Of a stretch of 35,712 nt of DNA, positions 4,481 to 11,755 are shown piece after piece. Numbering within the stretch: the first letter of the stretch is position 1; every line of letters starts with the position of its first letter. The notes below the pieces were generated by a model that was not told the origin of the DNA, did not search any database, and worked only from the letters and a program-made list of their open reading frames with translations. The stretch lies in IMG/VR virus record IMGVR_UViG_2563366825_000016; one strand, written 5' to 3'. Origin of the DNA: a virus (Duplodnaviria; Heunggongvirae; Uroviricota; Caudoviricetes). Position numbers and translations under genes: made by a program.

Positions 4481-4687
4481 TTAGTGATTCAGGCCGTTAC
4501 CGCGTCCGTCGAGAAAAACTTCTACGAGCAAATCACGGGTATAAGTGCGCTCGATGCCGCGATGCAGATAAAGCCGTCCGCGTAAATTAGCTGATGCAGT
4601 CCAGGTACCATCTTTGTGTTTGACCAGCATTCCTGGCATGACCGCACCTCGATTAACGGTCTGCGTTCCGTAATGTTGATGAACCAT
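4481..4687 (-). CDS. Hypothetical small protein (kil/cIII position), 68 aa from internal ATG
   Basis: ORF 4481..4723 on track; AGGAG followed 7 nt later by ATG (MVHQHYGT...) supports start at 4687; function not recognised. Confidence 0.5.
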
Positions 4688-4892
4688 AAAAAACTCCTGC
4701 CCGTAAGCTGGGCTGCTGAACATATTGAGACTTCTGCGCGTATTCAGGCGGTGGATGGCCGCCGGTTGTCATAACTAAGTCGCCTCGTTGAAGCGACTGA
4801 GGTATGAAGTGTTGAGTTGATTTCAGCTGGTCACACCGACGTTCACGCGTCCGCTTCACCCCTCGCACTCCCCGGAGTCTGCTGAAATTCAA

Positions 4893-5130
4893 GCTGCGGA
4901 TCTAAGCGGTCATCGCAACGGTGAATCAGGTGGTTGCCGTATCGTTGTGTTGTTGCGATATGGTGATAATAGCTATTGCTATTGGTGATATCAATACTTA
5001 TCGCTATTGGCTGATGTGTTTTGATATTAAATGTTTGATAGCAAAAAGAATTAATTTTGTGACTTGCATCGCATAGCGATAACTGAAGCGGGGGTTATGG
5101 TGGTTTTTCGAACGGTTTGTGTGATGAGGG
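4893..5130 (-). promoter_or_regulatory. Putative leftward early promoter/operator region (pL/OL equivalent)
   Basis: About 240 bp without a convincing ORF between the cI operon terminator and the early-left genes; contains repeated GCTATTG(G) at 4972-4978, 4978-4985 and 5003-5010, and a palindrome ATCGCATAGCGAT near 5068-5080; the 9-mer TTGCTATTG also occurs in the cI-cro intergenic region. Confidence 0.45.
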
Positions 5131-5163
5131 GGAGGCAAAAGAAAACCCGGCACGGTGGCCGGG
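5131..5163 (-). terminator. Intrinsic terminator downstream of the cI-moron operon
   Basis: Hairpin CCCGGC-ACGGTG-GCCGGG at 5146-5163; on the minus strand it is followed by TTTTCTTTTG; sits 9 bp after the stop of the 310-aa gene. Confidence 0.5.
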
Positions 5164-5171
5164 TAGCATCA

Positions 5172-6104
5172 CTATTCGATTTTTTTAACCATGTAGTTAC
5201 GTCGTGATGTTCCTAATCTTTCATTGTGAATCTCAGAAACGCTTACTACGAGCGATATTCGTTCACCAACTTTATATTTACTTTGAATTTCTCCTAACAT
5301 ATCAATCGGATAAGAAGCCTTTATTTTTCCAAGCTCGCTTGCAATCTCCAATTTCCCGTACATGGATAAAATAGCAAGTTCGCCTGATATATGCTCATCC
5401 GGTAGCTGAATGACCTTCGTTAAAGCTAAGCGAGCATTCAGTTTTTTTATATCTTCTGAAGAAATTGACACTTGTCTGGTACCATCACTTAAAGGTCCAA
5501 TCCAAGTAAGATCAAAGTTAAGACTATATTTTTCGCACTCATTTATGATGTTTTTTAGGTTAGCTGTTGATTGCGAACCAATTTCGGCAATTTTAGCCGT
5601 GAATGTTTCTTCATCAATGGATGAGAGTAGTGCAAAAATCTCCTTAACAGCATGACTGGATACTGTTTCGATGAGCTCGCAAGAACCAGTAGAAAAAGTA
5701 ACACCTAACTTCGTCGAACCTGGACGCAAGTCTGCCAATCTCATGTCTAATGATTTTTTAACATCAATCGGCACACGACTAGAATCTTTCCCAGATCCAA
5801 GTCGGTAAACTGCTTTCTGTACAAGGGATGCGAGATTACCTGAAATTACAGATAGAATATCTAACGGAATAGACCCGAAATCGACCAAAACACCTTTTAA
5901 TCTCAACTCCATGAAATCACGTAAAGGATGTTGGTTATCGATTGCACGTTGTCTCTCTCGGAGATCGCTCAGATGGGAGTCAAGTGATCTAAATATAATG
6001 TCATCAGCAAATGATCTCCCCTTATTTTGAGCAAGCAGATCCACATCGCGTTGAATGAACGCAATTCGCTCCTTGAGGGAGTTGAATGTTTTTTCTTCGC
6101 TCAT
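5172..6104 (-). CDS. Unknown 310-aa protein, second gene of a two-gene module downstream of cI
   Basis: Long ORF; start ATG overlaps the stop of the upstream gene (ATGA, translational coupling); GAGGGT about 7 nt upstream; AT-rich relative to the lambda-like flanks; no domain recognised from sequence. Confidence 0.8.
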   Translation of the reverse strand: MSEEKTFNSLKERIAFIQRDVDLLAQNKGRSFADDIIFRSLDSHLSDLRERQRAIDNQHPLRDFMELRLKGVLVDFGSIPLDILSVISGNLASLVQKAVYRLGSGKDSSRVPIDVKKSLDMRLADLRPGSTKLGVTFSTGSCELIETVSSHAVKEIFALLSSIDEETFTAKIAEIGSQSTANLKNIINECEKYSLNFDLTWIGPLSDGTRQVSISSEDIKKLNARLALTKVIQLPDEHISGELAILSMYGKLEIASELGKIKASYPIDMLGEIQSKYKVGERISLVVSVSEIHNERLGTSRRNYMVKKIE

Positions 6105-6574
6105 AACATTACCCTCACGAGGCCTTTAGGATTCTCCTTCCGATCAAAACCAAACCACCCTCTCCAGTAACTTCGCCTTTCACTATAATCGATTTCTGGA
6201 TGATTTTCAGGCAGCAAAAGAACGTCAATGCTGTAGTTTTCTTTAATAAAATCTCTATTTAACAATGAGCTAACCAATGGCATCAGCGTGTTTGGCAAAG
6301 AGTTTAGGGCCAAATAATCGACGACCACGAGTATATCTATGTCATCAGGTTCAGGTTTCTCTGTAGTGAATGAACCATCGATCCACACTTCAGAGAAACA
6401 TAGACACTGCTGATTAACAAGTTTAAATTGCTCAATAAGCTGTATAAAATTACAGTATAGCATACTTCTTCTAACGGATTTTGGGAAGGTGTCGACACAA
6501 AGAGACTTGATGCCATCACTATCCATATCATGAAATCCTGCTGTAAGAAGAGGTGGGAAGCTAGGCTTTTCCAT
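6101..6574 (-). CDS. 157-aa protein with nucleotidyltransferase-fold-like motif, first gene of the two-gene module downstream of cI
   Basis: AAGGA RBS about 6 nt upstream of ATG; motif WIDGSFTTEKPEPDDIDILVVVD fits the pol-beta-type nucleotidyltransferase signature G[SG]-x9-13-DxD; located 81 bp downstream of the cI stop on the same strand. Confidence 0.8.
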   Translation of the reverse strand: MEKPSFPPLLTAGFHDMDSDGIKSLCVDTFPKSVRRSMLYCNFIQLIEQFKLVNQQCLCFSEVWIDGSFTTEKPEPDDIDILVVVDYLALNSLPNTLMPLVSSLLNRDFIKENYSIDVLLLPENHPEIDYSERRSYWRGWFGFDRKENPKGLVRVML

Positions 6575-6655
6575 CCTAAGTCCTTGTTTATGCCATATAG
6601 CGTTCTATTTAATATTCTTGAAAAGAGTGTGCCTTAAAAAGCTACAGGCTAATTA

Positions 6656-7348
6656 TTAACCATGCTTCCTGTACGTCTGCGGCATGCTCCCAATAACCTT
6701 ACCGAAGATGAACACCCGGTTCATCTCGTCTTTCTCGATCGGGTCCCACGGTGAGTAGCTCTTGTTATCAGAGATAACCAGTAGCTTATCTTTCATCATT
6801 TGCAGGCGCTTTACATGGGCTGTGTCGTCGTACAGAAACGCATAGATACCATCACCGTCGAAAGATTTAACCGTGATATCAACGAACAGCAGATCACCTG
6901 GTTCGATCGTTCCTGACATGCTGTCACCACGCACGTTAATGATGCGGATATTTTCCGCCTTCCTGCCATCGAACATGTGACGAGCATCGTCAAACGAGTA
7001 CTCAACCGAGCGTAGAACTTCTACAAACTCACGGTTGATTACACCCGGCCCGGCACTGACTTCTATATCAAGAACGTCAATTTTGAAGTATTTGGAATGG
7101 CTGACAGCAGGCTTCCCTGATTGTTGACCGTCATTTCTCATCGGGCCTATGCCTGATGAGAGCCATTCTGTTCGAACACCCAATGCATTAGCTATTTCAA
7201 CAATTTTTGTTGAGCCGCGCGCGTTGCCGCTTGTCAGTCTCCAGATTGTGGGTTGAGCTACGCCAGACGCCTTTGCAAGAGCGCCTTGAGACATTCCAGA
7301 TTGTTCCATCGCTAGGTTTAAGCGATCAGCAAGAGTTTCTTTTTTCAT
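6656..7348 (-). CDS. cI: CI-type prophage repressor (HTH + LexA-like S24 peptidase domain)
   Basis: N-terminal HTH (SQGALAKASGVAQPTIWRL); C-terminal autocleavage motifs VRGDSMSGTIEPGDLLFVD and HVKRL (Ser/Lys dyad); track start at 7384 is TTG, so I place the start at the ATG (MKKETLADRL) at 7348. Confidence 0.88.
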   Translation of the reverse strand: MKKETLADRLNLAMEQSGMSQGALAKASGVAQPTIWRLTSGNARGSTKIVEIANALGVRTEWLSSGIGPMRNDGQQSGKPAVSHSKYFKIDVLDIEVSAGPGVINREFVEVLRSVEYSFDDARHMFDGRKAENIRIINVRGDSMSGTIEPGDLLFVDITVKSFDGDGIYAFLYDDTAHVKRLQMMKDKLLVISDNKSYSPWDPIEKDEMNRVFIFGKVIGSMPQTYRKHG

Positions 7349-7458
7349 AAGTTTTAATTTATACGCTTGCGTATTGATGGTCAAAACATGTTTTGCTATT
7401 GCTTGGATTAATACGCATTGCTATTATTCATTCATTGCAATACCAATAGGAATTGATA
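7349..7458. promoter_or_regulatory. Divergent cI/cro promoter-operator region (OR/PRM/PR equivalent)
   Basis: Intergenic region between divergent repressor genes; inverted repeat ATACGC-TT-GCGTAT at 7361-7374; second ATACGCA at 7411-7417; TTGCTATTG at 7393-7401 and TTGCTATTA at 7418-7426. Confidence 0.6.
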
Positions 7459-9970: not shown

Positions 9971-10260
9971 CGGGAAAAGAAGCAATTATTCATTACCTGG
10001 GGACGCATAAGAGCTTCTGTGCGCAGGACGTTGCTGCGGTAACAGGCGCAACAGTAACCAGCATAAATCAGGCTGCGGCTAAAATGGCGCGGACAGGAAT
10101 CTTAGTTATTGATGGTAAGGTCTGGCGAACGGTGTATTACCGGTTCGCTACCAGGGAAGAACGGGAAGGAAAGGTGAGCACGAATCTGATTTTCAAGGAG
10201 TGTCGCCAGAGTGCCGCGATGAAGCGGGTGTTGGCATTTTATCGCGGCAATTTTCAATAG
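9967..10260 (+). CDS. ren: Ren exclusion protein, 97 aa
   Basis: MTGKEAIIHYLGTHKSFCAQDVAAVTGATVTSINQAAAKMARTGILVIDGKVWRTVYYRFATREEREGK... matches lambda Ren; overlaps the P stop. Confidence 0.9.
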   Translation: MTGKEAIIHYLGTHKSFCAQDVAAVTGATVTSINQAAAKMARTGILVIDGKVWRTVYYRFATREEREGKVSTNLIFKECRQSAAMKRVLAFYRGNFQ

Positions 10261-10297
10261 ACTATGTACATAAAAATATCATTTTTTTAATACATGT

Positions 10298-10489
10298 CTA
10301 ATTATTGGACGAAATTGGTTTTTGCTTTGGTTTAGTTAGCCTAGCAATCAAGCCAGAGGCAATAATGATGATCCAAGCAATTTGATGCAATGCTACTCCA
10401 ATATAAGAACCTTTATAGATAATAAAGGCATAGATCGCTAGAAACGAAATAAATATCCATAACGAAAGTTGATAAATTTTGGCGCGCAT
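10298..10489 (-). CDS. Small hydrophobic (2-TM) membrane protein, about 63 aa
   Basis: ORF with two hydrophobic stretches (LSLWIFISFLAIYAFIIY; IAWIIIIASGLIA); in an AT-rich segment; weak RBS; start at the ATG at 10489 rather than the track TTG. Confidence 0.4.
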   Translation of the reverse strand: MRAKIYQLSLWIFISFLAIYAFIIYKGSYIGVALHQIAWIIIIASGLIARLTKPKQKPISSNN

Positions 10490-10745
10490 ATTTAATCCAA
10501 TCAATCAGAAAGACGAGTAATCATAGAGGTACTATCACCCGGGTAACTATTGCTATTATGAACGGATAGGATAGAGGCTTCAATAACATATGCATCAAGT
10601 ATGATGGAATATGTAGGTGAAAATGACTTGTGTCAAATTTGTGGAAATGAGTACCATGTTTCTCTGAAATTGATGTCGTTAATGGCTAGTGATAGTGAAC
10701 TTTTTTACTTTATAATTCCTTTGGTTATAACAATAAGGTAAATTT

Positions 10746-11306
10746 ATGAAGAAGATAATATTATTAGCCATGATTATTGGTTCTTTAACAGGTTGCGCTA
10801 GTGTGCCACCATTGAATTTTTCAACACCTAACGTGGGAGTTAGCCAGAAAAAAATAGATGCTGAAATTAAGTCATTAACGGTATCACTTGCTCGTCCAGA
10901 TGAGCAGAAAGGGGATATCACTGCTGGTATGGAGGCTATAACTCCAATTTGGCGTGAATCTTTGCAGGAAGCACTCGACCGAATGACTATTTTTCGTGAT
11001 AGTTCACCAAATACGGTTAGCTTAAATGTTAAAGTGTTGGCTCTTGACGTTCCTGCTTTTGGTGTTTCAATGACAACTAAAGCAATTGCAAGGTATGAAA
11101 TAATCAACCGTGCGAATGGTGATATTATATATACGCAGGATATTGAGTCTACCGGTACTGTTCCAGCCAGTTACGCATTCTACGGTATTGTTCGAGCACG
11201 CGAATCTGTTAATCGCGCGGTGCAAAACAACATAACGCAGTTCTTGCAAGCATTAGAAAGTGTTGATCTTTCTCGTCCAATGTTTCCTGTTAGGGTAGCT
11301 AAATGA
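10746..11306 (+). CDS. Lipoprotein (186 aa) of unknown function
   Basis: Signal peptide with lipobox LTGC (MKKIILLAMIIGSLTGCAS); AT-rich; no domain recognised. Confidence 0.8.
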   Translation: MKKIILLAMIIGSLTGCASVPPLNFSTPNVGVSQKKIDAEIKSLTVSLARPDEQKGDITAGMEAITPIWRESLQEALDRMTIFRDSSPNTVSLNVKVLALDVPAFGVSMTTKAIARYEIINRANGDIIYTQDIESTGTVPASYAFYGIVRARESVNRAVQNNITQFLQALESVDLSRPMFPVRVAK

Positions 11307-11755
11307 AGCGATTATTCGTAATTGCTCCACTCTTAGTGTTGGTTGGATGCGCACAAAATATATCGCCAAATAGTTATTCTGTTGGCTCTGTGGGCATGGT
11401 TAATCGAACTATCGCTGGTACAGTTATTAGTGCTAGGGGGGTTGATATCAGTGGGACTTCCGCGTTAGGCGGGACTGCTGGGGCTGCCGTGGGGGCAACC
11501 GCTGGTTCTGCGCTTGGTGGGGGAGTTCGTTCTAATATCGTTGGTGCCGTTGGTGGTGCAGTCATTGGTGGTATTGCCGGGGCAGCAATCGAATCTTCAG
11601 CAACAAAACAAACAGGCATGGAATATGTTGTCGAAACTGAGAATGGGAATTTAATGACCATTGTTCAAGGCAAAGATCCGTTATTTACTCAAGGAAGTAA
11701 GGTCCTTGTTTTATACGGAAACCCTTCTCGCATAATAACAGACCCGCGTCACTAA
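11303..11755 (+). CDS. Glycine-zipper outer-membrane-type lipoprotein (150 aa)
   Basis: Lipobox LVGCAQ; long Gly/Ala-rich stretch GTSALGGTAGAAVGATAGSALGGG...GGAVIGGIAGAAI typical of glycine-zipper lipoproteins (SlyB / 17-kDa antigen type); 4-bp overlap with the preceding lipoprotein gene. Confidence 0.8.
   Translation: MKRLFVIAPLLVLVGCAQNISPNSYSVGSVGMVNRTIAGTVISARGVDISGTSALGGTAGAAVGATAGSALGGGVRSNIVGAVGGAVIGGIAGAAIESSATKQTGMEYVVETENGNLMTIVQGKDPLFTQGSKVLVLYGNPSRIITDPRH

Follow-up and report, generated by a model that had tools for sequence, protein, structure and literature searches.

In the type VII toxin-antitoxin system HepT/MntA, a small nucleotidyltransferase (NTase) acts on its partner, and this system is the source of the idea that an NTase controls a partner protein by O-nucleotidylation. 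Hailong couples an ion channel, HalA, with HalB, an NTase that makes tyrosine-primed oligo-dA, and its partner binds nucleic acid (PMC13434031, a review). The interval between cI and N of lambdoid phages is a mosaic hotspot that is also home to rexAB and bstA (PMC8585504). Here we analyzed two genes, A and B, that occupy this interval on a 35,712-nucleotide stretch of virus DNA (the window; IMG/VR record IMGVR_UViG_2563366825_000016, Caudoviricetes). The pair is a catalogued but unvalidated, functionally uncharacterised candidate, PDC-M63. The adjacency and co-diversification of A and B, the allele diversity of the slot, the swapping of its content and the modularity of the partner are new in this analysis, and we tentatively read the pair as a phage-exclusion module.

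The gene order on the minus strand, taken from the list of open reading frames (ORFs) and the sequence, is cI, then A, then B:

5172-6104, minus strand: gene B, 310-aa partner protein (PADLOC PDC-M63B), no transmembrane segment
6101-6574, minus strand: gene A, predicted 157-aa DUF6932 minimal NTase (PADLOC PDC-M63A)
6101-6104, minus strand: ATGA stop/start overlap, seen in the sequence, that would couple translation of A and B
6575-6655, minus strand: 81-bp spacer between cI and A, with a Shine-Dalgarno-like AAGGA ahead of the A start in the sequence

The coordinates and lengths of both genes and the overlap agree with the initial annotation of the window, which was made from the sequence alone.

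Family identity and comparison with described systems

A matched the PDC-M63A model PDLC04744 (E 7.4e-43) over residues 1-156 of 157, and B matched six PDC-M63B models, the best at 4e-42 over residues 25-309. With both proteins matching models at full length and their genes adjacent on the same strand, no structural difference from PDC-M63 was found. A and B also belong to PHROGs 9194 and 6603 (2e-69 and 5e-177), both of unknown function, and in RefSeq A carries the name DUF6932 family protein. Escherichia phage PhiR30_1 matches the segment at 99.9% identity, and its record annotates both products as hypothetical. The initial annotation had regarded the pair as an undescribed system, which these catalogue entries contradict. 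The PDC-x systems of PADLOC are unpublished candidates, so the pair is catalogued yet functionally uncharacterised; PDC-M63 is itself a computational candidate whose single published test was negative, and a literature search for DUF6932 found no paper.

Models of RexAB, BstA, AbiE, MNT-HEPN and CBASS gave no match to the pair (Pfam, PADLOC), which supports the initial annotation on this point. The likeness to HepT/MntA consists of two overlapping genes with the small NTase first, and MNT antitoxin folds lie near A. However, A had no match to the MNT/NTP_transf family at E ≤ 1, leaving similarity at the level of the fold only, while B had neither a HEPN match (Pfam, PADLOC) nor a conserved Rx4-6H motif, and its OB fold and N-terminal hairpin have no HepT counterpart. 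A HEPN-like R39-x4-H44 in the hairpin was considered and dropped, H44 being conserved in 52% and R39 in less than 50% of 151 homologues.

Hailong is likewise a two-gene combination of NTase and partner; B has an OB fold of the single-stranded DNA (ssDNA)-binding type, three distant relatives of the pair have partners with two transmembrane helices, and a constitutive, inhibitory NTase that acts as a guard is a plausible analogy (PMC13434031). Unlike HalA, B has no transmembrane or channel domain. Hailong entries were absent from the top fold and sequence matches of A in the PDB, a comparison made through the PDB and not with the HalB sequence itself. When PDB sequences were searched with profiles of A and B, chance matches only were returned (e.g., a keratin coiled coil and an adeno-associated virus capsid).

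The NTases of AbiE/MenAT and the CD-NTases of CBASS differ from A in size, A (157 aa) being half as large and without their C-terminal domains. A had no AbiE or CBASS match in PADLOC at E ≤ 1 and no DUF1814 match in Pfam, and B has neither a winged helix-turn-helix antitoxin domain nor a nucleotide-sensor effector domain. RexAB, BstA of the Salmonella phage BTP1 and 933W-type cargo share with the pair the slot between the repressor and OL/N, where they are presumably read from the repressor promoter in lysogens. Sequence and architecture set the pair apart from RexAB and BstA, and PADLOC gave no RexA, RexB or BstA match at E ≤ 1. The pair is thus not a member of MNT-HEPN, AbiE, CBASS, Hailong, RexAB or BstA, HalB having been compared indirectly; its likeness to MNT-HEPN and Hailong is confined to their logic.

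The nucleotidyltransferase

A matched Pfam DUF6932 at 4e-26, and its matches to Polbeta (0.039) and DNA_pol_B_palm (0.013) were below threshold. The motif string quoted in the initial annotation, WIDGSFTTEKPEPDDIDILVVVD, corresponds to residues 64-86 of A. In an alignment of 33 sequences from Enterobacterales, Bacteroidota, spirochaetes and others, G67, S68, D78 and D80 were invariant, the third acidic residue, D117, was at least 90% conserved and a C-terminal RSYWRGWFGFDR..KG motif was conserved as well. The GS, the DxD and the third Asp are retained in NTases that have alternative partners.

The AlphaFold model of A (predicted local distance difference test, pLDDT, 96) has a confident Pol-beta-type NTase fold, and A combines the features expected of this class: hG[GS], [DE]x[DE], a third acid on the next strand and an alpha/beta core fold. 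The structures closest to A in fold are those of minimal NTases and MNT antitoxins (the latter including 7ae2, 7ae9, 8xeh and 5yep). Motif, model and conserved catalytic residues bear out the NTase assignment of the initial annotation, and A is apparently an active, minimal Pol-beta-type NTase with an intact active site, as judged from the alignment and the model. A is acidic, with an isoelectric point (pI) of 4.8 and a family median of about 5, which suits a protein-directed, MNT-like enzyme better than one directed at nucleic acid.

The partner protein and its modular relatives

B matched no Pfam family and nothing meaningful in NCBIfam. Its model is of medium quality (pLDDT 71.5). Two helices (10-25 and 32-56) form a confidently modelled hairpin at the N-terminus, the central region is alpha/beta with low confidence over the stretch 100-149, and the C-terminus is a beta-barrel that the fold search identified as an OB fold of the ssDNA-binding type (about 229-309). 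Conservation among 151 homologues was strongest in the block 119-148, LDLRLAGLxPGSTRLxITGxTxPDLFGxSL, with G129 at 97% and S130 at 99%; G176 and W201 were near-invariant. The hairpin and the OB fold were the most variable parts, exceeding the central block. No transmembrane segment was detected, the highest 19-residue Kyte-Doolittle window reaching 1.54. The initial annotation was correct that the 310-aa protein is neither membrane-like nor RexA or RexB, as no PADLOC Rex model matched, but its statement that the protein has no recognisable motif does not hold, as B begins with a hairpin of helices, ends in an OB fold and has a conserved Gly-Ser block between them. Clustering at 50% identity left 277 clusters from a profile search of the full library; among the best 150 of them, lengths were mostly 300-330 aa, matches ran in a single stretch and obvious domain fusions were absent.

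In eight loci the gene that follows the NTase matched only positions 1 to 55-63 of the B profile, which is the hairpin. The NTases of these loci come from other phyla, and what follows the hairpin differs:

L075 (2907-3341), L083 (8470-9012) and L090 (1279-1908): predicted transmembrane segments, maxima of the 19-residue Kyte-Doolittle window 1.8-2.4, read as two C-terminal helices
L045 (8439-9449): TPR repeats (3e-15) after the hairpin
L035 (7653-8150): unknown domain after the hairpin
L008 (1015-1293), L062 and L092: hairpin alone, in partners of 63-92 aa

PADLOC has no separate models for any of these partner architectures. Many immune and conflict systems are built in this way, with a short conserved adaptor attached to interchangeable modules. 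This layout implies that the hairpin links A to its partner: the 60-residue hairpin may be a docking or regulatory element through which A controls a swappable sensor or effector. The modular layout points to an NTase-controlled conflict module, whether defensive or toxin-antitoxin-like.

In a further four loci (L038, L040, L094 and L099) B is frameshifted or truncated, and its hairpin-coding 5' part stays in frame after an intact A; four such loci are too few to separate selection from chance or assembly error.

Distribution, pairing and content of the repressor slot

The full pair was present in 98 of 5426 complete Escherichia coli genomes (about 2%), with the repressor adjoining in all the matches listed, and a second E. 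coli allele, with an A that is 61% identical, was found in 18 further genomes. A scan with the A alignment over one genome per species detected relatives of A in 219 of 185,579 genomes, and 80 loci were fetched. In 79 of the 80, which span at least eight phyla, the next gene downstream on that strand is a homologue of B; in the lone exception the contig terminates right after A. Most of these 79 genomic loci have the 4-bp overlap or a near-abutment of the two genes. Among viral sequences, A is encoded on 93 IMG/VR contigs; 80 of these were fetched, and a full B is present in 76.

The pairwise identity matrices of A and B were correlated (r = 0.86; permutation maximum 0.16), and mean identity was 25% for B against 37% for A, indicating faster divergence of B. 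No conserved third gene accompanies A and B across the genomic loci. The genomic neighbors are heterogeneous and include XRE regulators, IS1, integrases, a few restriction-modification, AbiEi or candidate defense genes and many housekeeping genes. In Psychroserpens burtonensis (L007, 141-3112), A and B are followed by a Peptidase_U49 (Lit-like) gene and DUF6933, which may be a small defense cluster. In E. coli OkiPb01716 (L015, 3563-4725), an IS3 element has entered a prophage that is identical in all other respects, at the junction of A and B; A is slightly shortened (154 aa) and B is cut off from upstream transcription, an arrangement that is uninformative on toxicity.

Divergent alleles of the pair lie at the cI-downstream position in several temperate phages. 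The order cI-A-B-N recurs in mEpX1, in Erwinia phage vB_EhrS_59 and with the second E. coli allele, B being 55-72% identical. Of 59 distinct viral contexts, 32-34 have a repressor with HTH_3 and Peptidase_S24 domains as the upstream neighbor, with great diversity among these repressors. The content of the slot is also exchanged between siblings. In PhiR47_2 the slot (L014, 3071-4499) holds PDC-M11A and PDC-M11B (2e-133 and 7e-52), annotated as GevT toxin and GevA antitoxin, for which a literature search gave no relevant paper; in PhiR26_1 (L013, 2392-2772) it holds a putative lipoprotein gene.

Cassette boundaries and predicted expression

The features that flank the pair are the following:

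5145-5164, minus strand: intrinsic terminator, hairpin and T-run, tIMM-like backbone (terminator scan and phage alignments)
6656-7384, minus strand: cI-type repressor with HTH_3 and Peptidase_S24 (Pfam), directly upstream of A on the same strand
4966-5008, minus strand: OL/PL, with a predicted promoter TTGATA-17-TATTAT at 4994-4966 (promoter scan)
7410-7425, unstranded: OR operator-like 16-mer AATACGCATTGCTATT, next to cI and alike in type to the OL sites

Sixty-four base pairs around the hairpin are common to other lambdoid phages. Homology to PhiR47_2, a sibling phage with other cargo, covers the entire hairpin and breaks at 5164, so the terminator is assigned to the backbone and the swapped cassette spans about 5165-6655; on the other side, similarity to other phages restarts in the final 46 bp of cI. 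The initial annotation had described a hairpin terminator belonging to the two genes. The hairpin and T-run are present, but the alignment with PhiR47_2 crosses them, and as judged from the sequence the terminator is conserved backbone equivalent to lambda tIMM and not part of the cassette. The G+C content is 0.37-0.42 over about 5000-6800, against 0.50-0.53 leftward and 0.45-0.48 in cI. This drop, together with the cargo swap relative to PhiR47_2, supports the earlier description of an AT-rich, horizontally acquired segment: it is a horizontally swapped cassette.

Two operator-like 16-mers (4968-4983 and 4993-5008) overlap PL, and the OL and OR sites follow the pattern AATA-N8-TATT with a GCTATT half in common. 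The PL-like promoter and the flanking OL- and OR-type sites place the pair within the immunity region, at the position that rexAB has in lambda. The rexAB-equivalent slot proposed in the initial annotation is thus supported, with OL and cI on its two sides. The RefSeq annotation of an identical prophage indicates that cI likely starts at ATG 7348 (230 aa), and the 242-aa ORF with a TTG start is probably over-extended. The promoter scan placed a PRM-like promoter, TTGACC-17-TAAATT, at 7384-7356 on the minus strand with a predicted start 1-2 nt before ATG 7348, so that the cI mRNA would be leaderless, like the one made from lambda PRM. The scan for promoters and terminators gave no consensus promoter and no terminator in the spacer 6575-6655, and no minus-strand terminator between cI and A. 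The pair would be read in the lysogen from PRM on the cI transcript.

Other observations concern the remainder of the immunity region and the window. An N-type antiterminator gene was not called on the minus strand at 4653-4994, between PL (4994-4966) and kil (4481-4723). The N-terminus of a TTG-start ORF of 79 aa at 4653-4892 (minus strand) is rich in arginine, RLRGVRGVKRTRERR, and may be an RNA-binding motif like that of N. An HK022-style put RNA in place of the missing N was considered and rejected, as the 235-nt PL leader (4724-4958) folds like shuffled sequence (z -0.1), and Rfam at gathering thresholds gave zero matches on the whole window. A second AT-rich island, with a G+C content of 0.32-0.36 at 10200-11000, lies within about 10200-11755 downstream of ren and is likely a separate moron; it adjoins genes annotated in PhiR30_1 as an acyltransferase (about 10746-11306) and an outer-membrane lipoprotein (about 11303-11755).

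Proposed function and alternatives

Position, mobility and architecture suggest a role in defense. Our tentative reading is that the pair is a mobile, self-contained two-gene PDC-M63 conflict module that provides phage exclusion of an abortive-infection or toxin-antitoxin-like kind and is carried as repressor-slot cargo, expressed by the lysogen on the cI transcript. The position between OL and cI with no terminator ahead of A, the use of the same slot in several phages, the repressor neighbors and the swapped cargo of this hotspot are counted in favor of this reading, as are the family identity, the conserved NTase active site, the obligate pairing and the modularity of the partner. A would be the regulator and B the sensor or effector. 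A would dock on the hairpin of B and keep B inactive by nucleotidyl transfer, and infection would disturb this control and release B. The variation of the OB fold and hairpin beyond that of the central block, and the faster evolution of B than of A, are read as sensor-like. The preferred chemistry would be covalent attachment of a nucleoside monophosphate to B (NMPylation), for which the action of MNT antitoxins on HEPN toxins is the model and Ser130 (99% conserved) or Ser40 (72%) are candidate sites; it is favored because the nearest folds to A are MNTs and because A is acidic. A less favored possibility is that A makes a short oligonucleotide that the OB fold of B would bind, as in Hailong.

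Several points weigh against this reading. Deletion of PDC-M63AB from its native prophage in E. coli NILS69 had no effect on 10 virulent phages, a panel whose narrowness the authors themselves note, and this is the only experimental test of PDC-M63 found in the literature searched. No toxic or enzymatic domain is recognisable in B, so its role as effector is assumed. The conserved Gly-Ser block falls in the low-confidence part of the B model, and the OB domain lacks a consistently basic character (family median pI, 5.9). Outside Enterobacterales, defense and mobile neighbors are scattered among many housekeeping genes, so enrichment of defense genes outside phages is not strong evidence. Transcription of the pair with cI is predicted from the sequence.

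The main alternative, itself unlikely, reverses the roles of the two proteins: A would be a toxin that nucleotidylates tRNA or another essential target, like MenT or AbiEii, and B an antitoxin and sensor, with the hairpin neutralising A and the variable OB, TPR or transmembrane part detecting a phage cue and freeing A. A is the sole enzyme of the pair, with invariant catalytic residues, B evolves faster than A, the variable parts of B include binding-type domains (OB, TPR), and the hairpin-only partners of 63-92 aa resemble small antitoxins. However, a small, acidic A is poorly suited to a nucleic-acid target, its nearest folds are MNT antitoxins and not toxins, and the known NTase toxins (DUF1814) are about twice its size, with no PADLOC AbiE match for A. 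Partners with two transmembrane helices resemble effectors more than sensors. The four loci with a frameshifted or truncated B would fit the reversal in that all keep a hairpin ORF beside an intact A, but retention in four genes is statistically not meaningful.

It is quite improbable that the pair has no anti-phage function and is instead a toxin-antitoxin module for prophage addiction or stabilisation, or an accessory of lysogeny or induction in a permissive, highly transcribed slot. The negative deletion in the native host NILS69, the modest association with defense genes outside phages, the tight linkage to repressors of many immunity types and the toxin-antitoxin-like layout of two overlapping genes all agree with such a function. 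The negative test, however, covered 10 virulent phages in one strain, the slot is known to house the exclusion genes rexAB and bstA, and partners with exchangeable transmembrane or TPR modules are a typical trait of immune systems. The pair also occurs far from prophage repressors in many phyla, near transposons, integrases and some restriction-modification or Abi genes, a distribution that a lysogeny-specific role would not explain. A two-subunit small-molecule NTase, an ANT-like enzyme modifying an antibiotic or metabolite with B as the substrate-binding part, is highly improbable, as the underlying matches share the generic NTase core only, B has no similarity to ANT C-terminal domains, and transmembrane or TPR partner variants and synteny with prophage repressors are ill-suited to a resistance enzyme.

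The exclusion module proposed above can be extended, more doubtfully, to the whole family. DUF6932 NTases could form an uncharacterised class of immune or toxin-antitoxin enzymes with a hairpin adaptor, interchangeable partners and a chemistry distinct from that of MNT-HEPN, CBASS and Hailong, for example nucleotidylation linked through Ser, or the protein-primed synthesis of an oligonucleotide on the partner. From the repressor operon, such a module would serve temperate phages to exclude rival phages.

Implications for the family

The family is broad, compact and mechanistically opaque. At 1.4 kb and with two soluble proteins, the system lends itself to genetic work in E. coli K-12, for which phage collections exist. 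If functional, it would represent a mechanistically new branch of NTase immunity, with a very small enzyme that governs exchangeable partners by way of a short adaptor, and it would give a role to a pair carried by about 2% of complete E. coli genomes and by classic lambdoid phages such as mEpX1. It would also support systematic mining of the repressor-downstream slot of temperate phages for exclusion systems.

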